Of a stretch of DNA of 32,000 nucleotides, positions 1,825 through 29,716 are shown in pieces; the stretch's first letter is position 1, and each line of letters begins with the position of its first letter. Below the pieces are notes generated by a model. It saw only the letters and a program-made list of their open reading frames with translations. It was not told where the DNA came from and did not search any database. The DNA is from Vibrio vulnificus CMCP6 (GTDB taxonomy: Bacteria; Pseudomonadota; Gammaproteobacteria; Enterobacterales; Vibrionaceae): assembly GCF_000039765.1 (NCBI RefSeq), contig NC_004459.3, positions 2,511,127 through 2,543,126 on the forward strand. The letters are read 5' to 3'. The position numbers and the translations under genes are program-made.

Positions 1825-2262
1825 ATGAAAAATATAGCAATACTGACACTATCTTCTCTAATGCTCTTTTCTTCTTACACTTTTGCTAGAGATGATATTG
1901 GCTCATATTCCATAGAAAACGCTCTGAGCTCAGAGGCCGCAAAAAACAAGCTAGGTACAGATGTAAAGTTTTACTTTGGAGAACAGAAATTTCCTAAAGT
2001 TGTGGCAGAGTTTGGCGAGTTCAAAACGAACAAAAAGACAAATGCATTTAATAAAACAGATGAAGAGGCGTGTAACTGGGTCTTTTTGTCGGCCATGATA
2101 GTACTGAAAGAAAGAGCAATCAAAGAAGGTGGTAACGCGGTCGTTGATATCAAATCCAACTACAAAAACAACCTAACTTCAAGCGTTGACACTTTTCAAT
2201 GTGGTGCTGGGACAATGGTCGCTGGCGTTGCATTGACGGGTAAAGTCGTGAAGCTAAAGTAA
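1825..2262 (+). CDS. secreted/periplasmic protein of unknown function
   Basis: N-terminal signal peptide MKNIAILTLSSLMLFSSYTFA/RD. The ORF track starts at TTG 1813; ATG 1825 is preferred. The conserved-looking C-terminal block is GGNAVVDIKSNYKNN..FQCGAG. Confidence 0.6.
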   Translation: MKNIAILTLSSLMLFSSYTFARDDIGSYSIENALSSEAAKNKLGTDVKFYFGEQKFPKVVAEFGEFKTNKKTNAFNKTDEEACNWVFLSAMIVLKERAIKEGGNAVVDIKSNYKNNLTSSVDTFQCGAGTMVAGVALTGKVVKLK

Positions 2263-2389
2263 GCATAACAAGGCGTTCAAGAGGGACTTGGCACGCGTGG
2301 CATTTTCAATTTGCGTCGGTTTTGGTGGTTAAGGTGTTATGCGGTCACTTTTGTATTGCGTGCCTGCGCCCCTTAACGCGGCGTTATGC
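2263..2389 (+). repeat. attC site #4
   Basis: R'' GCATAAC ... R' GTTATGC; GGGACTTGGCACGCGTGGCA subtype. Confidence 0.9.
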
Positions 2390-2733
2390 TTAATCAAATA
2401 AAATCAGTGGTTTATGGTTTTTCTTTGCTCCCTTAGCTTTTCTGTTTGGTGCTTGTCGGTAAGTTGACTTCATTGGGCGCTGTTTTTCGGACACTTATTC
2501 TTTGGCGTTGGAAGTTCAGAGAATTGCCTCAATCAATTCTCGGGCAAGCGCGAGGTTAGGGCAGTTGGCTCAATCAGAACTTTGAACTTAGGTTTTTGAG
2601 TTTAAGCAGCCAAATTTTAAAGTCTGATTTTCAAAACTATGAGTCATTTCGGTTTTCTGTGTTTTGGCTTTTGTGTGTAAATCAAAGTCGAGTTAATCTT
2701 GGTTCTATTAAAACGTAACCCATTGAAGCTTAA
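2390..2733 (+). other. ORF-less paralogous cassette, subtype A (copy A1)
   Basis: About 345 bp and T/G-rich on the + strand. No ORF of 60 aa or more lies inside it. Homologous to 12-13 other cassettes in the window. Confidence 0.8.
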
Positions 2734-2860
2734 GCATAACAAGGCGTTCAAGAGGGATTCATGCCGCGTGGCATTTTTGGTATGCGGTGAGTTTTGGTGG
2801 TGAAGGTGGTCTGCGGAAAGTTGGTTTAGGCGGCACTCACCCCTTAACGCAGCGTTATGC
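2734..2860 (+). repeat. attC site #5
   Basis: R'' GCATAAC ... R' GTTATGC. Confidence 0.9.
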
Positions 2861-3203
2861 TTAATCACGTAAAATCAGTGGTTTATGGTTTTCTTTGTTC
2901 CCTCGGCTACTTGGTTTCGAGTTTGTCGGCAAGTTAGCTTCATTGGGCGCTCTTTTCTGGACACTCATTCTTTGGCGCTGAAAATTCAGAGAATTGCCTC
3001 AATCAATTTTCGGGTAAGCACGAGGTTAGGGCAGTTGGCTCAATCAGAACTTTGAACTTAGGTTTTTGAGTTTTAGCAGCCAAATTTCCAAGCCTGATTT
3101 TCAAAAATTATGAGTCATTTCGGTTTTCTACATTTTGGCTTTTGTTTGTAAATCAAAGTCGAGTTAATCTTGTTTCCAGAAAAACGTAACCCATTGAAGC
3201 TTA
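2861..3203 (+). other. ORF-less paralogous cassette, subtype A (copy A2)
   Basis: Nucleotide-level homologue of A1, sitting in tandem with it. Confidence 0.8.
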
Positions 3204-3331
3204 AGCATAACAAGGCGTTCAAGAGGGATTCATGCCGCGTGGCATTTTTGGTATGCGGCGAGTTTTGGTGGTGAAAGTGGTCTGCGGAAAGTTGGTTTAG
3301 GCGGCACTCACCCCTTAACGCGGCGTTATGC
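3204..3331 (+). repeat. attC site #6
   Basis: R'' GCATAAC ... R' GTTATGC. Confidence 0.9.
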
Positions 3332-3681
3332 TTAATCACCTAAAATCAGTGGTTTATGGTTTTTCTTTGTTCCCTCGGCTTGTTAGTTTCGAGTTTGTCG
3401 GCAAGTTGGCTTTTTTGAACGCTGCTTTTCGGACACTTATTCTGTGGCGCTGGAAATTCAGAGAATTGCCTCATTCAATTCTCGGGCAAGCGCGAGGTTG
3501 GGGCGGTGGCTCAATCAGAAATCCATTTCTAGGCTTTCAAACTTCAAACTAGATTTGCCAAAATTCCTAACCTGAATATCAAAACTATGATTCATTTCAG
3601 TTTTCTAAGTTTTGGCTTTTGTTTCTGAATCAAAGTCGAGTTAATCTTGTTCCCAGAAAAACGTAACCCATTGAAGCTTAA
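3332..3681 (+). other. ORF-less paralogous cassette, subtype A with variant middle block (copy A3)
   Basis: Homologous 5' and 3' thirds. The middle block (..AATCCATTTCTAGGCTTTCAAACTTCAAAC..) differs from A1/A2. The 74-aa ORF 3328-3552 uses a frame that other copies do not share. Confidence 0.8.
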
Positions 3682-3808
3682 GCATAACAAAGCGTTTAAG
3701 TGGGATTTGGCACGCGTGGCATTTTCGGTTTGCGTTGGGTTCGGTGATTAAGTCGCTGTGCGGTAGCTTTTGTATTGCGTGCCTGCACCCCTTAACGCGG
3801 CGTTATAT
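3682..3808 (+). repeat. attC site #7
   Basis: R'' GCATAAC ... R' GTTATAT. Confidence 0.9.
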
Positions 3809-3834
3809 TTTTAATCAATTTTCGAGTCGAAATC

Positions 3835-4299
3835 ATGGATGAAAGAAGTAGAGTTTACCTGGAACAATATCTGAACTCTTTACCTGATGAGGTCGCTTCC
3901 AAATACACTTCGTTCAGCTCAGACTATTTCTGTGCAGATGAACACAATGCTAATCTCTGTGCCGAGTTAATCCTTCGTGGTGAAAAGCGTGCATCATGCA
4001 GCTTAGACTATTGGTACAGTGAAAAAGGCGAGCCAATGCCGGTTGTTGGACACCTTCAAGTCGTGACAAATTGGGATGGTATACCGATTTGTATTATAGA
4101 AATGACGTCTGTAACCAAGCAAAAATACAGCGAAGTAACACCGGAGTTCGCTGCTTTAGAAGGTGAGGGTGACAAGACTCTGGCTTGGTGGCGAGAGGCG
4201 CATTGGAACTTCTTCTCAAAAGAGTGCGTAGTGTTAGGAATATCACCGTCGGAAGATATGTTGCTGGTACTAGAGCAGTTCAAAGTAGTGTGCAAATAA
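3835..4299 (+). CDS. ASCH domain protein (YhfF/COG4405-like)
   Basis: 154 aa. The blocks LILRGEKRASCS, PICIIEMTSV and EFAALEGEGDKTLAWWREAHWNFF match the ASCH family pattern as I recall it. Confidence 0.75.
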   Translation: MDERSRVYLEQYLNSLPDEVASKYTSFSSDYFCADEHNANLCAELILRGEKRASCSLDYWYSEKGEPMPVVGHLQVVTNWDGIPICIIEMTSVTKQKYSEVTPEFAALEGEGDKTLAWWREAHWNFFSKECVVLGISPSEDMLLVLEQFKVVCK

Positions 4300-4301
4300 A
4301 A

Positions 4302-4428
4302 ATATAACAAGGCGTTCAAGAGGGATTCATGCCGCGTGGCATTTGTGGTAAACAGTGAGTTTTAGTGGTGAAAGTGGTCTGCGGAAGGTTGGTCTAGGCG
4401 GCATTCACCCCTTAACGCAGCGTTATGT
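4302..4428 (+). repeat. attC site #8
   Basis: R'' ATATAAC ... R' GTTATGT. Confidence 0.9.
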
Positions 4429-4773
4429 TTAATCACGTAAAATCAGTTGTTTGCACTCTTTTTTGTTCACGTAGCTTTCAAGTTTTTCCCTTGTCGGCAA
4501 GCTAACTTCAGTGGTCGCTGTTTTCTGGACTCCTATTCGCGGGCGCGAAAAATTCGGAGAACTGCCTCATTGAAGTCCAGTGTGTTGGCGAGGAGAGTGA
4601 GGTGTTCTCAATTCCAAAGTTAGAGTTCCAGTTTTCGGTTTTTCACGCTAAAACTCAATGTTAGTAAAATCAAATTTATGAGTTAATTCAGTTTTTTAGC
4701 TTCTGGTTTTGGTTTTCAACGGTAAGTCGAGTTAAGCTCTTGGTATCGTAAAACTTAATCCTTTGAGTCTTAA
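4429..4773 (+). other. ORF-less paralogous cassette, subtype B (copy B1)
   Basis: Shares the 5' block (TTAATCACGTAAAATCAGTTG.., CTTGTCGGCAAG..CAGTGGTCGCTGTTTTCTGGAC) and the 3' block (TATGAGTTAATTCAG..GTAAGTCGAGTTAAGCTC) with subtype A. The middle differs. Confidence 0.8.
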
Positions 4774-4900
4774 ACATAACAAGGCGTTCAAGAGGGATTC
4801 ATGCCGCGTGGCATTTTTGGTATGCGGTGAGTTTTGATGGTGAAAGTGGTCTGCGGAAAGCTGGTTTATGCGGCATTCACCCCTTAACGCAGCGTTAGTT
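4774..4900 (+). repeat. attC site #9
   Basis: R'' ACATAAC ... R' GTTAGTT. Confidence 0.9.
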
Positions 4901-6528: not shown

Positions 6529-7062
6529 ATGAAAAGAATTAATGTAATAGGTACAAGTGGTAGTGGTAAAAGTACTTTCAGTCGCCAACTTGCTAGCAAG
6601 CTTAAATACCCATATTTGGAAATGGATGCGATATTTTGGAAGCCAAATTGGCAAGAGTCTACAGATGAAGAGTTCTACGCAAATCTAACTGAGAGTCTAA
6701 GTGGCGAACATTGGGTGCTTGATGGTAACTATAGCCGGACAGCCGAAATCAAATGGGCTAGGGCTGACACCATCATTTGGGTGGACTATTCCTTTTCTAG
6801 GACGTTATTTCAAGCTGTGAAACGAGCGTTAACTCGTATTGTGACTAAACAGGAACTGTGGGGTAAAACGGGCAATGTTGAGTCATTCAAAAAGTCGTTT
6901 CTTAGCAAAGATTCGATTATTCTCTGGACATTGAAAACGTATAAAACAAATCGTATTCGTTATACAGAGTTACTTAATGACCCGAGGTATAGCCACATAA
7001 AGTTCGTTAGAGTAACTAGCCCGAAAAAGGCTAGGGTGTTCATCGATGAGCTGCGCACATAA
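6529..7062 (+). CDS. P-loop NTPase/kinase (adenylate-kinase-like, topology-modulation FlaR-like)
   Basis: Walker A GTSGSGKST at the N-terminus, then WVLDGNY. The ORF track starts at TTG 6523; ATG 6529 is preferred. Confidence 0.65.
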   Translation: MKRINVIGTSGSGKSTFSRQLASKLKYPYLEMDAIFWKPNWQESTDEEFYANLTESLSGEHWVLDGNYSRTAEIKWARADTIIWVDYSFSRTLFQAVKRALTRIVTKQELWGKTGNVESFKKSFLSKDSIILWTLKTYKTNRIRYTELLNDPRYSHIKFVRVTSPKKARVFIDELRT

Positions 7063-7183
7063 CAAGGCGTTTAAGAGGGATTCATGCCGCGTGGCATTTT
7101 TGGTATGCAGTGAGTTTTTGTGGTGAAAGTGGTCTGCGGAAAGCTGTTTTAGGCGGCACTCACCCCTTAACGCAGCGTTATGT
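7057..7183 (+). repeat. attC site #13
   Basis: R'' ACATAAC ... R' GTTATGT. Confidence 0.9.
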
Positions 7184-7530
7184 GCTAAGTGTGCAAACAT
7201 TCCTTTACTAATAAATTAAAGGGGCTTTAGGCAGAGGTATTGTGGGAAAATTAATTGATATTGTCTGTTAATTGCGCTTGCATATGGTGATTAATGTCAC
7301 ATTTCTGAATTAAAAAAGAGCTAGATTTTAGTCTGTTTTTTGATGATTTTTTCATCTATCAATTTGTTTTAGGTGAAAAAAAACCTCAGAACAGACGCTG
7401 ATTTTTGTTTAGAGTACCACCTTGTTGTCTAAATACCAAGTTAGTTATTTCCCGAGTTATGTAGCTATATAACGCCCTATTAAGGGGTCGTTGTGCTCGA
7501 TCGTTTTTCTGTCCATTGGTTCCTGCGTAG

Positions 7531-7559
7531 TTGACCAAAAGGGATGTTTTCACTAATTT
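7531..7559 (+). promoter_or_regulatory. candidate sigma70 promoter inside a cassette
   Basis: TTGACC-N17-TAATTT, about 35 nt upstream of the small ORF at 7595. The -10 element is weak. Confidence 0.25.
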
Positions 7560-7594
7560 TGAAACCGAGATTAGAGCTTTAGTAAGGAATTGAT

Positions 7595-7765
7595 ATGAAA
7601 GGTAATGTTGACAGTGAGAGGCGTCGTTTGATTGAGAAAAGCATCAAACTAAACCCAACCCAGCAGGGATCGGATTGCTACTTGAGGAACATTTCTTTAA
7701 GCGCATTGATCAAATCCACTTTGGTTGGGGTAGCCGCTATTATTTGGGCTTTATCGCATTTCTAG
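7595..7765 (+). CDS. small hypothetical protein (56 aa, C-terminal hydrophobic tail)
   Basis: Falls below the ORF-track cutoff. ATG sits 6 nt after TAAGGA. The sequence is MKGNVDSERRRLIEKSIKLNPTQQGSDCYLRNISLSALIKSTLVGVAAIIWALSHF. It is the only plausible ORF in a 610-bp cassette. Confidence 0.4.
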   Translation: MKGNVDSERRRLIEKSIKLNPTQQGSDCYLRNISLSALIKSTLVGVAAIIWALSHF

Positions 7766-7793
7766 GTTTTCTAGCTAGGCAAGTGTAGATAGC

Positions 7794-7921
7794 ACATAAC
7801 AAAGCATTTAAGAGTGATTCCCAACGCTTGGCATTTTCAGTTCAAGGTTGGGTTTCGTGTTTAAGGCGCAATGGTTCAGGTTTGGTGGTAGCGTTGCTCA
7901 CACCTTAATGCGGCGTTAGCT
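7794..7921 (+). repeat. attC site #14
   Basis: R'' ACATAAC ... R' GTTAGCT; GATTCCCAACGCTTGGCA subtype. Confidence 0.9.
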
Positions 7922-7959: not shown

Positions 7960-8859
7960 ATGTACAACTTAATAATTGGGTATACAGGACCGAGTGAGAG
8001 CGAGAATGAAGTTATTGTTTCTGCTTCAAGGTTTCTCGAATACACTGACTCTGAAACGCAAATGCGATACAGAAACTTGAACGCAGATAATGTCCGAGAG
8101 CTAAAAGACTTCCCTGCACTATTTTTGCAAGAACATTGCCCTGATGGAGCTTTTGTAGCCAACATCACTAATATCACTCGTTCATATAGAGATTATAAAA
8201 TTACGTTTGAAAGAGATGATAGCTATGGTGTAATCCCGAAAGAAACAATAGAAGACTTGGCTATTGAGTTAGGCATCGAGGAATTTGAGTTCTATCGAAC
8301 GCATTGGGCAGTCAAAAGCTCAAACTTGGCAAATATCTTAAGTCCCATCGAAACTCCAGTCCGTCCTACTTCACCAGTTGAATTCGAAGCTGAAAACCTA
8401 CCGCCAGAGGACGGTTCTAGTTTTAATAAGAACCAAGTATTCATAGTGCATGGGCATGACGAACACGCCAAGAACGATGTTAAAGCATACGTTGAATCTA
8501 AAGGTTTAGAGCCAATAATTCTTCATCTACAGGCTAGTGGTGGAAGAACTATCATTGAGAAGATTGACCACTATAGTAATGTTGGATTTGGTATCGTTCT
8601 TTATACTGAATGTGACCTAGGAGCTAAAAGGGATACTTTGAGCTTTAAATGGAGAGCTCGTCAAAACGTAGTTTTTGAACATGGCTACCTCATTGCAAAA
8701 CTATCGAGAGAAAGAGTGGCAGCCTTAGTTAAAGGTTCTGTTGAAACCCCAAATGATATTAGTGGGGTTGTTTACGTTTCTATGGATGCTGCGGGAACGT
8801 GGAAAGATGAGTTAGATGCAGAGTTACGCAACGCTGGGTATGAGATTCCAAACAGCTAA
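7960..8859 (+). CDS. two-domain protein: unknown N-terminal domain + C-terminal TIR-like (CAP12/Pycsar-effector, PF10137/COG4271-type) domain
   Basis: 299 aa. The C-terminal blocks are VFIVHGHDE, GRTIIEKI, VGFGIVLYT, RARQNVVFEHGYLIAKLSRERV and PNDISGVVYV. The RBS is AAAGGA. The TAA stop lies in the attC R''. Confidence 0.75.
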   Translation: MYNLIIGYTGPSESENEVIVSASRFLEYTDSETQMRYRNLNADNVRELKDFPALFLQEHCPDGAFVANITNITRSYRDYKITFERDDSYGVIPKETIEDLAIELGIEEFEFYRTHWAVKSSNLANILSPIETPVRPTSPVEFEAENLPPEDGSSFNKNQVFIVHGHDEHAKNDVKAYVESKGLEPIILHLQASGGRTIIEKIDHYSNVGFGIVLYTECDLGAKRDTLSFKWRARQNVVFEHGYLIAKLSRERVAALVKGSVETPNDISGVVYVSMDAAGTWKDELDAELRNAGYEIPNS

Positions 8860-9643: not shown

Positions 9644-10183
9644 ATGGTAAATATGGAAACAGAGAGACTTAAACTACTACCTCCTTCAATGGAGTATCAA
9701 CCTTTGATGCTCGAAGCGATATTGGAAAGCCAAGACGAACTTGGTGTCTACCTTCCGTGGGTTCCATATGCTTTAACAGAAGCTGGTTCCATTGAAACTA
9801 CGCAACAAGCTATCAATAACTTTGAGAATTTTGAAGGTGAGTTACGCTATTCAATCATAGAAAAAAGTACAGGGCACTTTCTTGGTGCAATAGGGTTAAT
9901 CATCCGTGATAAAACGGTTCCGTACTTTGAAATTGGTTATTGGTTACGTAGTTCAAGTGTTGGTAATGGTTTCATTTCTGAAGCAGTGAAAGCACTAGAG
10001 TCATATGCGTTTAATGAGCTTAACGCTAACCGAGTTGAAATTAAAGCAGCCGAACACAACTTGAAAAGTCGAGCGGTAGCTGAGCGTTGCGGGTATGTTT
10101 TTGAAGGTATTTTACGTAATAACCGAAGGTTGCCGTCAGGCGATTTGAGTAGCACGGCAGTTTATTCGAAAACAGGCACTTAG
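9644..10183 (+). CDS. GNAT acetyltransferase, RimJ/RimL-like
   Basis: N-terminal ETERLKLLP signature, then IGYWL and GNGFISEAV. The alternative start is ATG 9653. The stop lies 3 nt before the IS30 left end. Confidence 0.7.
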   Translation: MVNMETERLKLLPPSMEYQPLMLEAILESQDELGVYLPWVPYALTEAGSIETTQQAINNFENFEGELRYSIIEKSTGHFLGAIGLIIRDKTVPYFEIGYWLRSSSVGNGFISEAVKALESYAFNELNANRVEIKAAEHNLKSRAVAERCGYVFEGILRNNRRLPSGDLSSTAVYSKTGT

Positions 10184-10185
10184 TA

Positions 10186-11263
10186 TCAAGTTTGAAGTGC
10201 GACACTTTTTACAGGTGCGCATGAATATACTCCGTTGGTGTCCTATACCCAAGTCTTTTGCGTGGGCGCGTATTTAATTTGTGTGCAATTTCATTGCAGA
10301 GCTTCTGTGTTACGTGTGACATAGAAGTTCGTTTTGGTAAGTATTGTCGTATCAAACCATTGGTGTTTTCATTAGTCCCTCGCTCCCATGAATGGTATGG
10401 ATTTGCAAAGTAAAACAGACAGTTATGATGTTTTTCCAGTTGTGCATAACCATGAAATTCAGTGCCGTTATCCGCAGTTATCGTCTTAAAAGGTAAGTCA
10501 GAGCGGGTCATGATTTTGCTCATTCTTACGTTGAGCGACTCGCTTGTTCTATCGTCCATTTGCCCTATAAAAGTGTAGCCAGTCATTCTGTCGACTAAAG
10601 TTACGATACAGTGCTTGGTTCCGCGGCCAACGACGGTATCAATTTCCCAATGGCCAGGCTCATTTCGATGCTCAGCTTTTGCAGGTCTTTCGGTAATATG
10701 ACGCTTTGCTGCCAGCCGACCTCGGCTGTCTTTTGAGTTATATCTTTTGCGCCTTTTCTTGGTCGATTGGCGTAGATGTTTCCATAGTGTTCCACCGAGA
10801 GTTTTGTCGTTCCAAATATGCTGATAAATGAGCTCGTGGCTCATTGTTGGATAGCCTCTTACCCTTAGGTATCCGACGATTTGGTCAGGGCTCCAATCCA
10901 GTCGTAGCAAGGCTTCAGGTAACCTGAAGTCGATTTCGCTATAGCGCTTGTTTCTGCGCGAGCGGCTTAGCCGGTTGCGAGCCATCTGTTGGGCTCTCCA
11001 TGCTTGATAGGAGAACCTTCTAAAGTGTCTGTTGTATCGGGAATTACGTTCAATTTCTCGATAGATAGTAGCTTTGTGACGACCTAGTTGTTTAGCTATT
11101 TTAGCGGTACTAATTCCTTGCTTTCTGAGCGCAGAAATCATATACCTTTCGTTCTCAGTGAGGTGCGTGTATCTCATGTTTTTTACTTCTTGGCGGGAGC
11201 AAACTTCATGATTATCGCATCTCACTGTTTTTATGTTCAGAGGTGTCGCACTTCGTACTTGAA
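10186..11263 (-). mobile_element. IS30-family insertion sequence
   Basis: About 1.08 kb. Terminal inverted repeats are TCAAGTTTGAAGTGCGACAC (10186-10205) and GTGTCGCACTTCGTACTTGA (11243-11262), matching at 18/20. A single transposase gene fills the interior. No unambiguous target-site duplication was seen. Confidence 0.85.
10209..11177 (-). CDS. IS30 family transposase
   Basis: N-terminal HTH LTENERYMISALRKQGISTAKIAKQLGRHKATIYREI. DDE core: HWEIDTV, ITADNGTEF and YHSWERGTNENTNGLIRQY. The ORF-track start at 11273 runs through the IR; ATG 11177 (MRYTHL) is preferred. Confidence 0.9.
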   Translation of the reverse strand: MRYTHLTENERYMISALRKQGISTAKIAKQLGRHKATIYREIERNSRYNRHFRRFSYQAWRAQQMARNRLSRSRRNKRYSEIDFRLPEALLRLDWSPDQIVGYLRVRGYPTMSHELIYQHIWNDKTLGGTLWKHLRQSTKKRRKRYNSKDSRGRLAAKRHITERPAKAEHRNEPGHWEIDTVVGRGTKHCIVTLVDRMTGYTFIGQMDDRTSESLNVRMSKIMTRSDLPFKTITADNGTEFHGYAQLEKHHNCLFYFANPYHSWERGTNENTNGLIRQYLPKRTSMSHVTQKLCNEIAHKLNTRPRKRLGYRTPTEYIHAHL

Positions 11264-11271
11264 TCCAAGGC

Positions 11272-11399
11272 ATATAACAAGGCGTTTAAGGCGGATTCAC
11301 AACGCTTGGCGATTTCAGTTCAAGTTGAATTTAGTGTTTAAGGTACAATGGTTTAAGTTTGGTGGTTAGCGTTGTTCACCACTTAACGCGGCGTTATAT
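11272..11399 (+). repeat. attC site #17
   Basis: R'' ATATAAC ... R' GTTATAT. Differs from attC#18 at only one internal position. Confidence 0.9.
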
Positions 11400-11977: not shown

Positions 11978-12099
11978 CAAGGCGTTTAAGACGGATTCAC
12001 AACGCTTGGCGATTTCAGTTCAAGTTGAATTTAGTGTTTAAGGTACAATGGTTTAAGTTTGGTGGTTAGCGTTGTTCACCACTTAACGCGGCGTTATGC
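11972..12099 (+). repeat. attC site #18
   Basis: R'' ACATAAC ... R' GTTATGC. Near-identical to attC#17. Confidence 0.9.
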
Positions 12100-12443
12100 T
12101 TAATCAAATAAAATCAGTGGTTTATGGTTTTTCTTTGTTCCCTCAGCTTTTGGTCTTGTACTCGTCGGCAAGTTGGCTTCAGTGGCCGCTATTTTCTGGA
12201 CACATATTCTTTGGCGTTGGAAGTTCAGAGAATTGCCTCAATCAGTTTTCGGGTAAGCGCGAGGTTAGGGCGGCTGGCTCAATCAGCAATTTGATCTTAG
12301 GTTTTTGAGTTTTAGCAGCCAAATTTTAAAGTCTGATTTTCAAAAATTATGAGTCATTTCAGTTTTTTAGGTTTTGCCTTTTGTTGCCTAATCCTAGCCG
12401 AGTTAATCTTGTTCCTAGTAAAACGTAACCCATTGAAGCTTAA
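12100..12443 (+). other. ORF-less paralogous cassette, subtype A (copy A4)
   Basis: Homologue of A1. The 70-aa ORF 12096-12308 starts at the ATG of the attC R' box. Confidence 0.8.
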
Positions 12444-12570
12444 GCATAACAAGGCGTTCAAGTGGGATTCATGCCGCGTGGCATTTTTGGTTTGCGGTGA
12501 GTTTTGGTGGTGAAGGCGGTCTGCGGAAAGTTGGTTTATGCGGCATTCACCCCTTAACGCAGCGTTATGC
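12444..12570 (+). repeat. attC site #19
   Basis: R'' GCATAAC ... R' GTTATGC. Confidence 0.9.
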
Positions 12571-12913
12571 TTAATCAAATAAAATCATTGGGTTATGGTT
12601 TTTCTTTGTTTCCTTAGCTTTTGGGTTTTGTGCTCGTCGGCAAGTTGGCTTCAGCGGGCGCTGTTTGCTGGACATCAATTCTTTGGCGCTGAAAATTCAG
12701 AGAATTGCCTCAGTCAATTTTCAGGTAAGCGCGAGGTTAGGGCATCTGGCTCAATCAGCAATTTGAACTTAAGTTTTTGAGTTTAAGCAGCCAAATTTTA
12801 AAGTCTGATTTTCAAAATTATGAGTCATTTCGGTTTTCTATGTTTTGACTTTTGTTTGTAAATCAAAGTCGAGTTAATCTTGTTCCTGGTAAACGTAAAC
12901 CATTGAAGCTTAA
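12571..12913 (+). other. ORF-less paralogous cassette, subtype A (copy A5)
   Basis: Homologue of A1, in tandem with A4. Confidence 0.8.
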
Positions 12914-13040
12914 GCATAACAAAGCGTTAAAGTGGGATTCGTGCCGCGTGGCATTTTTGGTATGCGGTTGGCTTTGGTGGTGAAGGCGGTCTGCGGGAAG
13001 TTGGTTTAGGCGGCACTCACCCCTTAACGCGGCGTTAGGC
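12914..13040 (+). repeat. attC site #20
   Basis: R'' GCATAAC ... R' GTTAGGC. Confidence 0.9.
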
Positions 13041-16582: not shown

Positions 16583-16701
16583 CAAACTGTTCAAGCAGAT
16601 TCGGCACGCGTGGCATTTTGGGTTTGCGGTGAGTTTTGTGATTACGGAGTAGTGCAGAGGCATTTGTATAGCGTGCCTCACTACTTAACAGGGCGTTATG
16701 C
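16577..16701 (+). repeat. attC site #26
   Basis: R'' ACATAAC ... R' GTTATGC. Confidence 0.85.
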
Positions 16702-17045
16702 TTAATCAAATAAAATCAGTGGTTTATGGTTTTTCTTTGTTTCCTCTGCTTTTGGGTTTTGTGCGCGTCGGCAAGTTGGCTCCAGTGGGTGCTGTTTGCT
16801 GGACACTTATTCTTTGGCGCTGAAAATTCACAGAGTTGCCTCAATCAACTTTCGGGCAAGCGCGAGGTTAGGGCGGTTGGCACAATCAGAAATTTGATCT
16901 TAGGTTTTTGAGTTTTGATTACCAAATTTCAAAGTCTGATTTTCAAAACTATGAGTCATTTCGGTTTTCTACGTTTTGGCTTTTGTTTGTGAATCAAAGC
17001 CGAGTTAATCTTGTTTCCAGAAAAACGTAACCCATTGAAGCTTAA
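16702..17045 (+). other. ORF-less paralogous cassette, subtype A (copy A6)
   Basis: Homologue of A1. It carries the compensatory A-T to G-C change in the conserved hairpin (16831-16853). Confidence 0.8.
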
Positions 17046-17172
17046 GCATAACAAGGCGTTCAAGAGGGATTCATGCCGCGTGGCATTTTTAGTATGCGGT
17101 TAGTTTTAGTGGTGAAAGTGGTCTACGGGAAGTTGGTTTGTGCGGCATTCACCCCTTAACGCAGCGTTATGT
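17046..17172 (+). repeat. attC site #27
   Basis: R'' GCATAAC ... R' GTTATGT. Confidence 0.9.
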
Positions 17173-17506
17173 TTAATCACGTAAAATCAGTTGCTTGCAT
17201 CTTTTTTGGCTTTCTAATTTTGGTCTTGTCGGCAAGTGACTTTAGTGGTCGCTGTTTTCTGGACTTCAATTCGTGGGCGCTAAAAATTCAGAGAACTGCC
17301 TCATTTAATTTCAGTGTGTTTGTAAGTTGAATGAAGCGATCCTAGTTTCAAAGTCTGAGCTCCAGTTTTGGTATCTCACGCTAAAACTCAATATCAGTAA
17401 AATCAAATTTATGAGTTAATTCAGTTTTTTAGCATCTGGTTTTGGTTTGCAGAGGTAAGTCTAGTTAAGCTATTGGTGTCGTTAAACTTAACCCTTTGAG
17501 CCTTAA
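17173..17506 (+). other. ORF-less paralogous cassette, subtype B (copy B2)
   Basis: Homologue of B1. Confidence 0.8.
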
Positions 17507-17633
17507 ACATAACAAGGCGTTCAAGAGGGATTCATGCCGCGTGGCATTTTTGGTATGCGGCGAGTTTTGGTGATGAAAGTGGTCTGCGGGAAGTTGGTTT
17601 GTGCGGCATTCACCCCTTAACGCAGCGTTAGGC
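17507..17633 (+). repeat. attC site #28
   Basis: R'' ACATAAC ... R' GTTAGGC. Confidence 0.9.
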
Positions 17634-18721: not shown

Positions 18722-18847
18722 ACATAACAAGGCGTTCAAGTGGGATTCATGCCGCGTGGCATTTTGGGTTTGCAGTGAGTTTTGTGGTGAAAGTGGCCTG
18801 CGAAAGGTTGGTTTGTGCGGCATTCACCCCTTAACGCGGCGTTATGT
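18722..18847 (+). repeat. attC site #30
   Basis: R'' ACATAAC ... R' GTTATGT. Confidence 0.9.
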
Positions 18848-19199
18848 TTAATCACGTAAAATCAGTTGGTTGCATCTTTTCTTTGCTCCCTCGGCTGGTT
18901 AGTTTCGAGTTTGTCGGCAAGTTGGCTTCAGTGGGCGCTGTTTGCCGGACATCAATTCTTTGGCGCTGGAAATTCAGAGCGTTGCCTCAATCAATTTTCG
19001 CGCAAACGCGAGGTTAAGGCTGTTGGCTCAATCAAAAATCAGCTTTCACTTACTTGTTGTCAAAGCTTGAATTGTTAAAATTCCAAGTCTGATTTTCAAA
19101 AGTTATGAGTCATTTCAGTTTTTTAGGTTTTAGCTTTTGTACGTGAGTCAAAGCCGAGTTAATCTTGGTTTTGGTAGAATGTAAGTCCTTGAAGCTTAA
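18848..19199 (+). other. ORF-less paralogous cassette, subtype A-like with third middle variant (copy A7)
   Basis: B-like 5' end (CAGTTGGTTGCATC), A-like core and a unique middle (..CAGCTTTCACTTACTTGTTGTCAAAGC..). Confidence 0.75.
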
Positions 19200-19326
19200 A
19201 CATAACAAAGCGTTAAAGAGGGACTTGGCACGCGTGGCATTTTTGGTTTGCAGCTTGTTTAGTGGTTAAGGTGGTATGCAGCAATTTTTTTATTGCGTGC
19301 CTGCGCCCCTTAACGCGGCGTTAGCT
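19200..19326 (+). repeat. attC site #31
   Basis: R'' ACATAAC ... R' GTTAGCT. Confidence 0.9.
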
Positions 19327-20738: not shown

Positions 20739-20859
20739 CAAGGCGTTCAAGAGGGATTCATGCCGCGTGGCATTTTGGGTATGCAGTGAGTTTTAGTGGT
20801 GAAAATGGTCTGCGGTAAGTTGGTTTATGCGGCATTCACCCCTTAACGCGGCGTTATGT
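20733..20859 (+). repeat. attC site #34
   Basis: R'' GCCTAAC ... R' GTTATGT. Confidence 0.9.
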
Positions 20860-21205
20860 TTAATCACGTAAAATCAGTTGGTTGCATTTTTTCTTTGCTT
20901 TCTCGGTTTTCTAATTTTGGTCTCGTCGGCAAGTTGGCTTAATAGGGCGCTGTTTTCTGGACATCCATTCTTGGGCGCTAAAAACTCTGAGAATTGCCTC
21001 AGTCGATTTTCGGGTAAGCACGAGGTTAGGGCATCTGGCTCAATCGGAAATTTGAACTTAGGTTTTTGAGTTTTAGCAGCCAAATTATAAAGTCTGATTT
21101 TCAAAAATCATGAGTCATTTCAGTTTTTTAGCTTCTGGTTTTGGTGTGCAAAGGTAAGTCGAGTTAAGCTCTTGGTATCGTAAAACTTAACCCTTTGAGT
21201 CTTAA
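20860..21205 (+). other. ORF-less paralogous cassette, A/B mosaic copy
   Basis: B-type 5' end, A-type core (hairpin, GGCTCAATC block, TTGAGTTTTAGCAGCCAAAT) and B-type 3' end (TTAGCTTCTGGTTTTGG..GTAAGTCGAGTTAAGCTCTTGG). Confidence 0.8.
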
Positions 21206-21332
21206 ACATAACAAGGCGTTCAAGAGGGATTCATGCCGCGTGGCATTTTTGGTATGCGGTGAGTTTTAGTGGTGAAAGTGGTCTGCGGAAAGCTGGTTTA
21301 TGCGGCATTCACCCCTTAACGCAGCGTTATGT
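21206..21332 (+). repeat. attC site #35
   Basis: R'' ACATAAC ... R' GTTATGT. Confidence 0.9.
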
Positions 21333-21668
21333 TTAATCACGCAAAATCAGTTGCTTGCATCTTTTCTTGGCTTTCTAGTTTTGGCTTTGTCGGCAAGTTA
21401 ACTTCAGTGGCTGCTGTTTTCTGGACTCCAATTCATTGGCGCTAAAAATTCAGAGAGTTGCCTCATTGAAATACAGTGTTTGGGTGAGGTGAGTGCAGCT
21501 TGCTCAGTTTCAAAGTTAGAGCTTCAGCTTTCGTTTCTCACGTTGTGATTCAATGCAAATTCAATCAATTCTATGAGTTAATTCAGTTTTTTAGCCTATG
21601 GTTTTGGTTTGCAAAGGTAAGTCGAGTTAAGCTCTTGGTATCGTAAAACTTAACTCTTTGAGTCTTAA
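21333..21668 (+). other. ORF-less paralogous cassette, subtype B (copy B3)
   Basis: Homologue of B1. Confidence 0.8.
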
Positions 21669-21795
21669 ACATAACAAGGCGTTTAAGTGGGATTCATGCC
21701 GCGTGGCATTTTTGGTATGCGGTTAGTTTTTGTAGTGAAGGTGGTCTGCGGAAAGCTGGTTTAGGCGGCGTTCACCCCTTAACGCAGCGTTATGC
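21669..21795 (+). repeat. attC site #36
   Basis: R'' ACATAAC ... R' GTTATGC. Confidence 0.9.
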
Positions 21796-23897: not shown

Positions 23898-24019
23898 CAA
23901 AGCGTTTAAGGCAGATTCCCAACGCCTGGCATTTTTCATTCCATCGTCGGGTTTTGTGTTTACGGTGGCAAGGTTAGGTTTAGTGGTGGCGTTGCTCACT
24001 ACTTAACGCGGCGTTATGT
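23892..24019 (+). repeat. attC site #40
   Basis: R'' TTCTAAC ... R' GTTATGT. Confidence 0.85.
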
Positions 24020-24364
24020 TTAGTCACGTAAAATCAGTTGGTTGCATCTTTTCTTTGTTCCTTCGTATTTCTAATTTTGGTCTTGTCGGCAGGTTAACTT
24101 CAGTGGTCGCTGTTTTCTGGACTCCAATTCGTGGGCGCTAAAAGTTCAGATAGTTGCCTCATTGAAATGCAGAGTGTAGGCGAGGTGAGTGAAGTGATTT
24201 TGATTTCAAAGTTAAAGTCCGGCTTTTCGGTTTCTCACGTTAAAACTCAAAGTCAGAATATTCAAAATTATGAGTTAATTCAGCTTTTTAGCGTCTGGTT
24301 TTGGTTTTCAAAGGTAAGTCGAGTTAAGCTGTTGGTATCGCAAACTTAACCCTTTGAGCCTTAA
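24020..24364 (+). other. ORF-less paralogous cassette, subtype B (copy B4)
   Basis: Homologue of B1. The 72-aa GTG ORF at 24131-24349 is not conserved in B1-B3. Confidence 0.8.
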
Positions 24365-24491
24365 ACATAACAAGGCGTTTAAGAGGGATTCATGCCGCGT
24401 GGCATTTTTGGTTTGCAGTGAGTTTTGGTGGTGAAAGTGGTTTGCAGAAAGTTGGTTTAGGCGGCATTCACCCCTTAACGCGACGTTATAT
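24365..24491 (+). repeat. attC site #41
   Basis: R'' ACATAAC ... R' GTTATAT. Confidence 0.9.
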
Positions 24492-27606: not shown

Positions 27607-27733
27607 GTATAACAAACAATTTAAGAGTGATTCAGCACGCGTGGCATTTTTGGTATGCGGTGGTTTTGGGTGTTGAAAGTGGTCTGCAGCGGCTTGGTCA
27701 TTGCGTGCTTCACACCTTAATTGGGCGTTATAT
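27607..27733 (+). repeat. attC site #46
   Basis: R'' GTATAAC ... R' GTTATAT. Confidence 0.9.
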
Positions 27734-28017
27734 CACGACGGTCATCACAGGTAGAGTGTATGGATATCATGACCAAGTATGATTTTTAGACGATGGTTCA
27801 GTGTGAAAGACGTCAAAAGGGACGAATATTAGTTATTTCTATGCTAACCTTGAGGCGCTTTCGCGCTTCTTAATATGGCGCAGCAATTAAAGTAATCGCG
27901 GCAGCGCACTCAAGGTAGTGCGATAACAAATACTTCGGCTTCGATTTTTTGTCTTCTAACGCCTATCTCATTGTATTAAATCACTATTTTAGTCAAATTT
28001 AGCTGACGTTGGTCGTG
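27734..28017 (+). other. cassette with no ORF (unique sequence)
   Basis: 284 bp between attC#46 and attC#47 with no ORF above about 10 codons on either strand. It contains several short GC hairpins, such as GAGGCGC-TTTC-GCGCTTC and CGCACT-N6-AGTGCG. Confidence 0.5.
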
Positions 28018-28146
28018 ACATAACAAAGCATTCAAGACAGATTCGCGCCTACGTGCATTCGTAGTTTACTTTGGGTATATCTGAAAAACGTAGTTTGCTG
28101 AGAGTACGTCACTGACGGCTCTCACTGCTTAATGCGCGCGTTATAT
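28018..28146 (+). repeat. attC site #47 (divergent subtype)
   Basis: R'' ACATAAC ... R' GTTATAT. AACAAAGCATTCAAG pairs with CTTAATGCGCGCGTT. The centre is unrelated to the other attCs. Confidence 0.75.
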
Positions 28147-28561: not shown

Positions 28562-28688
28562 ATATAACAAGGCGTTCAAGAGGGATTCATGCCGCGTGGC
28601 ATTTTTGGTATGCGGTGAGTTTTGGTGGTGAAAGTGGGCTGCGGAAAGTTGGTTTATGCGGCACTCACCCCTTAACGCGGCGTTATGC
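28562..28688 (+). repeat. attC site #48
   Basis: R'' ATATAAC ... R' GTTATGC. Confidence 0.9.
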
Positions 28689-29039
28689 TTAATTACGTAA
28701 AATCAGTGGTTTATGGTTTTTCTTTGTTCCCTCAGCTTTTTAGTTTTGTGCTCGTCGGCAAGTTGGCTTTTTTGAGCGCTGTTTTTCGGACACTTATTCT
28801 TCGGCGCTAAAAACTCTGAGAATTGCCTCAATCAATTCTCGGGCAAGCGCGAGGTTAGGGCGGTTGGCTCAATCAGAAATCCATTTCTAGGTTTTCAAAC
28901 TTCAAACCAGATTTGCCAAAATTCCGAGCCTGATTATCAAAACTATGATTCATTTCGGTTTTCTGTGTTTTGGCTTTTGTGTGTAAATCAAAGTCGAGTT
29001 AATCTTGGTTCTATTAAAACGTAACCCATTGAAGTTTAA
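28689..29039 (+). other. ORF-less paralogous cassette, subtype A (copy A8, mosaic of A3-type middle and A1-type 3' end)
   Basis: The middle block matches A3. The last ~95 bp match A1 nearly base for base. Confidence 0.8.
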
Positions 29040-29166
29040 GCATAACAAGGCGTTCAAGAGGGATTCATGCCGCGTGGCATTTTTGGTATGCGGTGAGTTT
29101 TGGTGGTGAAGGTGGTCTGCGGAAAGTTGGTTTAGGCGGCACTCACCCCTTAACGCAGCGTTAGTA
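29040..29166 (+). repeat. attC site #49
   Basis: R'' GCATAAC ... R' GTTAGTA. Confidence 0.9.
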
Positions 29167-29590
29167 CGGGGGTGGCATCAAAGGTTAAAAGTTTCAGTGT
29201 TTATTGGTTTCGTTTCCTAGCTTTACACCTGCACGGGCATGCCTTTCACGTTCTTTCCGGTGGCACTATATGCGGAGTTTCCGCTTTGACTTCAGCGTTT
29301 ACGGTTTCTAATTTTTTGGCTATTTCGTGGGCGCGGCTTCTTTTGTGTTGTTGGCTTTTTAGCCTTCAATTCTGTACGTTGGTGTGGTTGTAAAAGTTTG
29401 GTGACCGAATCCTTTGCTAATTTGAAACTGGTCAAAATGGGGTAGTTTGGCGCGTTTTTCTTCTAGCCAATTTGCGGTTTGAAGTTGAGTTCTAGTTTGG
29501 CCGTTGTCCCTATAGTTTCAGCGTTTTAAGCCAACAGTTTCGTGCTATATTTCAATATGTTGGTGCATACCAGAAGGTTCAGGAACAGCG
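29167..29590 (+). other. ORF-less cassette, possible distant relative (subtype C) of the A/B family
   Basis: T/G-rich + strand. Shares short blocks with A/B: TCAGTGTTTATTGGTTTCGTTTCCTAGCTTT versus TCAGTGGTTTATGGTTTTTCTTTG..TTAGCTTT, and TTCGTGGGCGC. The only ORF is a 73-aa GTG ORF rich in Cys, Phe and Leu, judged spurious. Confidence 0.45.
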
Positions 29591-29716
29591 TACTAACAAA
29601 CAATTTAAGAGTGATTCGGCACGCGTGGCATTTTTGGTTTGCGTTGGTTTTAGTGGTTAAGGTGGTATGCGGCAGCATCGGTATTGCGTGCCTCACACCT
29701 TAATTGGGCGTTATAT
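29591..29716 (+). repeat. attC site #50
   Basis: R'' TACTAAC ... R' GTTATAT. Confidence 0.9.

Follow-up and report, generated by a model that had tools for sequence, protein, structure and literature searches.

Why should a chromosomal integron devote a large share of its cassettes to units that encode no protein? The question is raised by a stretch of 32,000 nucleotides from Vibrio vulnificus CMCP6 (NC_004459.3, positions 2,511,127 to 2,543,126), called the window below. The window is part of a V. vulnificus-type Vibrio chromosomal integron, in which about 52 cassettes are set off by about 52 attC sites of 116–121 bp, all on one strand, starting with TAACAA and ending with GCGTTA; the cassette count is approximate, with one apparent attC split (6725–6829) that is probably false. 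Most cassettes carry an open reading frame (ORF) on the + strand, for example for ASCH, methyltransferase, GNAT-type and TIR-domain proteins, and no integrase gene lies within the window. Judged by their sequences, thirteen of the cassettes are members of a known non-coding ('gene-less') family of V. vulnificus-type chromosomal integrons. They would most likely have been selected as weak internal promoters, maintaining transcription of the cassettes downstream of them, an interpretation that we favour with some reserve. The finding is real and largely explained already, since the family has been known since 2006 and was tested functionally in 2024.

The thirteen paralogous cassettes all lie on the + strand, each with its own attC of about 119 bp, and show a mean column identity of 80% in their alignment and pairwise identities of 58–90%. 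Exactly these 13 copies are matched in the window by the 17-base 5′-end pattern TTATGNTTANTNNNNNAAAATCA, with 0 matches expected, and exactly the same 13 were recovered by a profile search of the window (E values 1e-85 to 1e-111), bearing out the original prediction of thirteen copies in one orientation. They fall into two main subtypes, A and B, together with a variant middle segment (copies at 3326 and 28683) and recombinants. With the cassette body defined as the first T after the crossover G through the base preceding TAAC, body length is 343–361 bp, or 461–479 bp including attC; the copies listed originally are real, while their true body starts lie about 6 nt to the left of those given. 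Together the bodies occupy 4,595 bp, or 14.4% of the window, and 6,142 bp with their attC sites, in agreement with the earlier estimates of 4.5–5 and 6–6.5 kb. The estimate that about one cassette in four belongs to the family is also correct, because 13 copies stand among some 52 cassettes. The repeated AATCA motifs are likewise there, with 49 observed against 4.1 expected, a roughly 12-fold and strand-specific enrichment in which the counts are not independent because the copies are homologous. Of the earlier description of the + strand as T- and G-rich, the first half stands (T 0.375 vs 0.319 in the window) and the second does not (G 0.211 vs 0.238); the strand is also A-poor. The impression that the copies sit in runs was not sustained: the 5 adjacent pairs observed do not significantly exceed the 3.0 expected by chance (P = 0.13).

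An integron gene cassette is recognised by the R′ crossover (G|TTRRRY) of the preceding attC upstream and by its own attC, starting with R″ (RYYYAAC), downstream. All 50 full-length copies, 13 from the window and 37 from nine other Vibrio records, have R′ (...GCG|TTATG) upstream and R″ (TAACAA) downstream, so that each body begins with TTATGY right after ...GCG and is followed by TAACAA. [quoted passage not shown] This covariation is not an RNA feature and is expected of a unit that circularises through its own attC. The cassette 5′ end and its attC are inherited as one unit, as seen from this covariation and from copies in Vibrio mimicus that keep a vulnificus-type attC. In V. mimicus CAIM 602 (comparison locus L070, 4301–4656 and 7258–7611) these copies stand behind V. 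cholerae-type attC ends, CTTAGGYGGGCG, and run into a vulnificus-type attC start, TAACAAGGCG; the presence of vulnificus-type attC sites inside an array of V. cholerae repeats (VCRs) therefore indicates horizontal transfer between species pools. The copies are genuine integron cassettes, each consisting of a protein-free body of about 350 bp and its own attC. Like other cassettes, they presumably depend on the integron integrase for their mobility, to judge from their distribution over species and plasmid-borne arrays.

The first alternative to be weighed is that the family hides protein-coding sequence on one strand or the other, as a degenerate or unrecognised gene or a small ORF, or else represents a structured small RNA. 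ORFs of 70–76 amino acids occur in some copies (3328–3552, 12096–12308, 18866–19078, 24131–24349 and, on the minus strand, 20874–21104), and a minus-strand frame of the form (M/L)RQ...SQLAD...EQRK recurs over copies. However, these ORFs differ in frame and are missing from most copies, and in about 9 of the 13 the minus-strand frame is interrupted by a stop. Stops are present in all six frames of every window copy. In an alignment of 47 sequences, from the window and the nine other Vibrio records, codon phase entropy was 0.54/0.58/0.60 (permutation p = 0.70), indicating no 3-nt periodicity, and gap runs were 1, 2, 4, 5, 7, 9 or 10 nt long. The short ORFs as a whole (56–76 amino acids) occupy different frames in different copies, and a six-frame check agrees with the original prediction that they read the same conserved block in different frames. 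Two further recurring frames, MSHFGF... on the + strand and MGYV...RLTRL on the − strand, were rejected as candidates, as neither gives an ORF conserved across subtypes; the short recurring frames either lack the start codon in subtype B or have an in-frame stop in most copies. With no conserved ORF, no consistent reading frame and no codon-like substitution pattern, the window copies are non-coding, as had been claimed, and fit the gene-less family of V. vulnificus.

The RNA side of this alternative fares no better. One copy folds slightly better than its own shuffles (z = −2.05), but the other single-copy z-scores are 0.10, −0.59 and −0.41, and the RNAalifold consensus over 370 columns reaches only −7.28 kcal/mol on the + strand and −4.67 kcal/mol on the − strand. 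A search of the whole window against Rfam at the gathering threshold was negative, as was one of positions 2250–4900 with the limit relaxed to E ≤ 1. Neither a conserved structure with covariation nor a covariance-model match was found on either strand, and the structured small RNA among the functions listed in the original prediction falls away. Taken together, a hidden protein gene or structured RNA is highly improbable.

What the cassettes do instead is best approached from the published record. Although the family had been treated as unexplained, a family that fits was described in 2006 and the present one was tested in 2024. According to Boucher et al. (2006, PMC1382264), non-coding cassettes account for 6–49% of Vibrio arrays, with the figure of up to 49% for the integron of V. 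vulnificus CMCP6, tend to paralogy, and have homologues of >80% identity in other vibrios and none beyond vibrios. One highly paralogous non-coding family had 45 copies in CMCP6. Selfish elements or promoter or RNA functions were proposed, untried in that work. Like the window copies, the 2006 family is non-coding and paralogous, and it accounts for about 20% of CMCP6 cassettes compared with 25% here. From the species type, abundance and properties we infer that the two are the same; the equation goes no further than this, since PMC1382264 prints no sequence.

The link to the second study is direct. Blanco et al. (2024, Nucleic Acids Res, PMC11014356) synthesised 29 gene-less cassettes and an ORF-containing control, C7. 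Hallmark blocks of the family are present in 13 of 13 V. vulnificus gene-less cassettes in that study, V1–V13 (Supplementary Table S1). V1, V7 and V13 match the family profile in nhmmer with E values of 1e-81 to 1e-102 and show homology over the whole body, their best identity to a window copy being 86–89% despite errors from extracting the published sequences from PDF text. V1–V13 resemble the window copies in having A and B subtypes and in attC type, size and orientation; they come from another strain (FDAARGOS_663), and none is identical to a window copy. The cut-off used in that study (no ORF >210 bp) would exclude five of the window copies because of their chance ORFs of 70–76 amino acids.

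Eleven of the 13 V members raised sense-strand expression of green fluorescent protein (GFP) 5–20-fold, similar to the weak class 1 promoter PcW, and on the antisense strand an increase of about 2.5-fold was recorded for V2, V3, V11 and V12 (PMC11014356). Length-matched lacZ controls had no promoter signal. V13, the strongest member, raised the trimethoprim minimum inhibitory concentration (MIC) of a silent dfrB9 2–4-fold, compared with >500-fold for the cassettes P4 and F3. For C2, a Vibrio cholerae cassette, promoter activity was clearly seen in the native context by RNA-seq, according to the authors. The promoter cassette listed among the functions in the original prediction is thus supported by 11 of 13 homologues. 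Outside Vibrio, ORF-less promoter cassettes of Treponema integrons (Tansirichaiya et al., cited in PMC11014356) are also gene-less with shown promoter activity; these have an atypical integron architecture, were assayed in Escherichia coli and are likened to the present family by description only.

On the evidence from these homologues, weak sigma70-type transcription initiation on the sense strand would be the best-supported activity of the family. Transcription would then read through attC into the next, promoterless cassette, and the distal parts of a very long array would therefore not be silent. Published data show that transcription is not terminated by attC sites. In the window, the commonest attC type (e.g. 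2761–2784, 3232–3255 and 4801–4824) contains ATGCCGCGTGGCAT followed by TTTTTGG, which a scan flagged as terminator-like. The copy number itself was probably built up by cassette capture of old lineages, with reshuffling through recombination between paralogues.

Several observations weigh against the promoter interpretation. Two family members, V7 and V12, were without promoter activity, as was C7, a relative with the same 5′ module, and even the MIC change obtained with the strongest member is small. The starts mapped by rapid amplification of 5′ cDNA ends (5′-RACE) are scattered, those of V7 lying at 12, 107, 134, 159, 165, 185, 252 and 261, and the authors themselves raise spurious AT-rich initiation and failed to locate the promoters in silico (PMC11014356). 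Our own consensus promoter scan gave 3 matches against 3.1 in shuffles, which is chance level, and the −10 of the candidate element is not constant at the second base, a critical one (many copies read GGAAAT). Conserved blocks extend along about 250 of the 350 bp, for which a promoter of about 40 bp is insufficient to account. A weak promoter also leaves unexplained a module of about 190 nt found across Vibrionaceae, and the tandem placement of promoters is not explained by the model either.

Two positions may nevertheless be considered as candidate promoters. The first is an element [T/C]GGAC[A/T]-N16-[A/G][A/G]AA[A/G/C]T at cassette positions ~105–132, which recurs across the alignment with an invariant GGAC; some of the V7 RACE starts (107–185) lie around it. 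The second was picked by the promoter-prediction program BPROM, as TTGTTT-N17-TAATCT, in the invariant GTCGAGTTAAKCT block near the 3′ end, with scores exceeding those for PcW (PMC11014356 Table S4). In B-type copies the hexamer is TAAGCT instead of TAATCT, which is the −10 of PcW as listed in the same table. The nested primers used for V7 and V11 (gsp4_R) anneal on the GTCGAGTTAAKCT block, and starts downstream of it would therefore be undetectable. V7 is inactive though its block is the same as in active members, so the GTCGAGTTAAKCT block alone is not decisive.

A second alternative arises from the pattern of conservation. The alignment of 47 sequences holds 67 invariant and about 100 near-invariant columns. 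Between subtypes A and B, identity is 61–78% in columns 1–160, 45–56% in columns 161–280 and 65–69% in columns 281–360. Several other gene-less types match the family profile only over its first ~190 positions, namely one of ~430 bp in V. anguillarum and V. navarrensis and one in V. mimicus whose core is duplicated in tandem. The shared 5′ module of about 190 nt consists of a T-rich leader, TGTCGGCAA, about 62 nt, TTGCCTCAWT and repeated AATCA. A module profile built from diverse loci was run on the cassettes tested by Blanco et al. and matched C2 (E 2.5e-35) and C7 (1.4e-33, with a second core copy at 4.2e-22) of V. cholerae, P1 (3.8e-26) and P4 (2e-21) of V. parahaemolyticus, and F3 (1.5e-6) and F2 (2e-3) of V. 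fischeri. The module starts at or near the cassette 5′ boundary in most types and ~45–80 nt further in for F2 and F3. If V1–V13 all carry it, about 19 of the 30 cassettes of the 2024 study would have one element in common. This relationship across families is possibly new, as it is without mention in the accounts of 2006 and 2024 (PMC1382264, PMC11014356).

Among these relatives, C2 of V. cholerae N16961 is homologous to the window family from end to end (E 1e-20 with the family profile). The 5′ terminus TTATGCTTAATC..AAAATCAG, the core and, on the 3′ side, the terminal GAAGCTTAAGCA|TAAC are common to both, but C2 is far more divergent than V1–V13 (65 bits full length vs 265–332 bits). C2, C7 and the V. 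mimicus homologues differ from V1–V13 in having VCR-type attC sites, and C7 and the long V. mimicus form have the core duplicated in tandem, unlike the window family. V. cholerae C3–C6 and C8–C10 (PMC11014356 Supplementary Table S1) constitute a second gene-less family, whose 5′ end, TTATGCTTCTTAAAGCAAAAATCATCAAAATC, resembles TTATGCTTAATCA..AAAATCAG of the present one; these cassettes were undetected by the profile, so the resemblance may be chance or a short common motif.

The alternative suggested by the module is that a conserved cis-element with a non-promoter function is what has been selected, with promoter activity as a side effect; it could act as an unstructured regulatory RNA or provide a binding platform for a protein of the host or the integron. 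Its presence in six tested cassettes from other species, its position at the 5′ boundary, the better preservation of columns 1–160 than of columns 161–280 and the strand-specific AATCA enrichment all point this way, as does the conservation of the module-bearing V7, V12 and C7 despite their lack of promoter activity. On the other hand, no binding protein or motif match was identified, and no conserved RNA structure was found. The motifs TGTCGGCAA and TTGCCTCAWT could form a 5-bp GGCAA/UUGCC stem, the sole candidate; over 26 diverse sequences this pairing was compensated in 3 and broken in 3, nothing else pairs, and it is not read as structure. Furthermore, the module-bearing P4 and F3 are the strongest promoters in the published assay, and the module may therefore simply be promoter context. 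Since it is carried both by these two and by the inactive C7, V7 and V12, its conservation is not obviously tied to promoter strength. Overall, we consider a non-promoter element with incidental promoter activity unlikely. As a separate and somewhat broader proposition, the first ~190 nt may be an ancient, position-fixed non-coding module common to otherwise unrelated Vibrionaceae gene-less types, and a dedicated cis-element rather than a set of accidental promoters; this we advance tentatively, with more doubt than belief. Its function could be, for example, that of a protein-binding or transcription-control site of chromosomal integrons.

Derivation of the core from an attC fossil was rejected: the family profile gave no + strand match to any attC at E ≤ 10, and neither a hairpin nor any stem beyond 5 bp was found. 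One attC type does carry TCGGCACGCG...GCGTGCCTCA at a similar spacing, the common words being TCGGCA...TGCCTCA, 76–80 nt apart.

The last alternative is that these are selfish or neutral 'empty' cassettes: short bodies on efficient attC sites, often excised and re-inserted and so spreading between Vibrio arrays, with promoter activity as incidental AT-rich initiation and conservation due to young age and gene conversion. It is among the two options given by Boucher et al. (PMC1382264), and the scattered starts and weak activity published for the family are in keeping with it. The distribution of the family also bears on it. Full-length copies were found in V. floridensis, V. proteolyticus, V. 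mimicus, V. vulnificus FORC_037, V. anguillarum, V. navarrensis, V. alginolyticus and V. parahaemolyticus, many species having copies of ~90% identity. Besides the window, at least nine Vibrio records contain the family, which is restricted to the cassette context, all copies being flanked by attC on both sides. Some lie in plasmid cassette arrays, including that of a conjugative MOBF plasmid of V. navarrensis. A scan of a genome collection with the 17-base 5′ pattern, which makes chance matches in AT-rich genomes and is no species census, gave V. mimicus, V. floridensis and V. proteolyticus among the matches listed. Mosaic copies reveal recombination; a clear one, at 20854, is B-type in columns 1–40 and 281–360 (92–94%) and A-type in columns 161–280 (87–94%).

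Nevertheless, absence of the family outside this genome, which would have pointed to a recent neutral amplification, is not what was seen. The highest identity between any two window copies is 90%, and for 10 of the 13 the nearest copy in the window is equalled or surpassed in closeness by a relative in another genome, so the expansion reflects old, horizontally exchanged lineages and not a recent local burst. Variation is strongly uneven, with invariant blocks that outlast the deep A/B split and the cross-family comparisons, unlike the outcome of neutral drift plus conversion. An attC alone suffices for a selfish cassette, which makes a conserved body superfluous, and the length-matched lacZ controls were silent. 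We therefore regard purely selfish or neutral spread as improbable, and weak internal promoters remain our preferred explanation.

Two of the comparison records deserve comment. NZ_CP016323.1 (L123, V. vulnificus FORC_037 'plasmid unnamed', 40,850 bp) is made up almost wholly of integron cassettes and copies of ISVvu6; it contains 22 full-length family copies and large internal duplications (3355–3707, for example, is identical to 32176–32528), has no annotated replication or mobility genes, and was probably derived from the chromosomal integron by misassembly or excision. Carriage of the family by phage was rejected, as the sole 'phage' match (L124, MK672802.1, 'Vibrio phage Va_90-11-286_p16') is a prophage record overrunning into the host integron. 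Beyond the prophage integrase it takes in thrS-infC-rpmI-rplT, another integrase gene, on the reverse strand, and ~13 kb of integron cassettes that belong to the V. anguillarum host and not to the phage, a stretch with three family copies and a RelE/ParE-Phd pair.

In the window, cassette 1 (subtype A) spans 2384–2854, its body 2384–2736 and its attC 2737–2854; this and all the following are on the + strand, with the body given in brackets and followed by attC. Cassette 2 (subtype A) spans 2855–3325 (2855–3207), and contains the TCGGCAAG...TTGCCTCA core at 2926–3001, a sigma70-like TGGACA-N16-GAAAAT at 2958–2985 and the GTCGAGTTAATCT block at 3158–3170. Cassette 3 (subtype A, variant middle segment), at 3326–3802 (3326–3684), is 90% identical to cassette 13, which has the same subtype and variant segment, lies at 28683–29160 (28683–29042) and is 91–93% identical to copies of V. 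proteolyticus and V. vulnificus FORC_037. Further A copies are cassette 5 at 12094–12564 (12094–12446), cassette 6 at 12565–13034 (12565–12916) and cassette 7 at 16696–17166 (16696–17048). Subtype B comprises cassette 4 at 4423–4894 (4423–4776); cassette 8 at 17167–17627 (17167–17509), with a 10-nt deletion in the 5′ T-rich tract; cassette 11 at 21327–21789 (21327–21671), 91% identical to a V. floridensis copy; and cassette 12 at 24014–24485 (24014–24367), 97% identical to a V. anguillarum copy (L124, 35420–35773). Cassette 9, at 18842–19320 (18842–19202), is a mosaic with a B-type 5′ end and an A-like remainder, and cassette 10, at 20854–21326 (20854–21208), is the clear B/A/B mosaic.

A proposed fourteenth copy or distant relative at 29161–29593 is not a member, as it was undetected by the family and core profiles (E ≤ 10, filters off) and shares only a 77-nt match of 69% with a different gene-less type. 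This cassette is of a separate T-rich gene-less type (A 0.18, T 0.38), with a homologue 75% identical over ~320 nt in a V. parahaemolyticus plasmid array (L127, 2426–2741) and a weaker 129-nt match (71%) in V. floridensis (L004). Three other cassettes, at 572–921, 7178–7796 and 27728–28020, are ORF-less or have a short ORF only (61, 56 and 26 amino acids). The one at 27728 has a 138-nt match of 81% identity in a V. alginolyticus plasmid array (L126); the other two were without match among the comparison loci.

Among the remaining features of the array, an IS30-family insertion sequence (10177–11315; ORF 10209–11273 on the minus strand, with HTH_38 and rve domains) lies inside the array next to an acetyltransferase cassette. 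It is ~92% identical to ISVvu6 of V. vulnificus FORC_037, and elements of this type are present in at least 7 copies in the FORC_037 record. The cassette at 7960–8859 encodes a 299-amino acid protein with a CAP12/Pycsar-effector TIR domain (Pfam PF10137, E 6.6e-35) and is a candidate anti-phage defence cassette; the identical protein is found on 8 contigs of public assemblies. One window protein, with the same neighbours, is also encoded on CP037931.1 (assembly GCA_004355205.1), and the attC type of the window is the same as that of the V. vulnificus cassettes of PMC11014356. In five comparison records (L121, L123, L125, L127 and L128), the annotation 'DUF3265 domain-containing protein' is given to proteins located on, or immediately behind, the attC sites downstream of cassettes; these look like repeat translations, not genes.

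The non-coding cassettes bear on the old question of how arrays of hundreds of promoterless cassettes are expressed. Because most of the answer is already in print, the window adds this strain's copies and no new phenomenon. What lies beyond the promoter model is a residue of long invariant blocks, a 5′ module extending across Vibrionaceae and members that are conserved yet inactive. The module shared between families is the one lead worth following and, if it proves to be an element dedicated to regulation or protein binding, would add a new component to integron biology.

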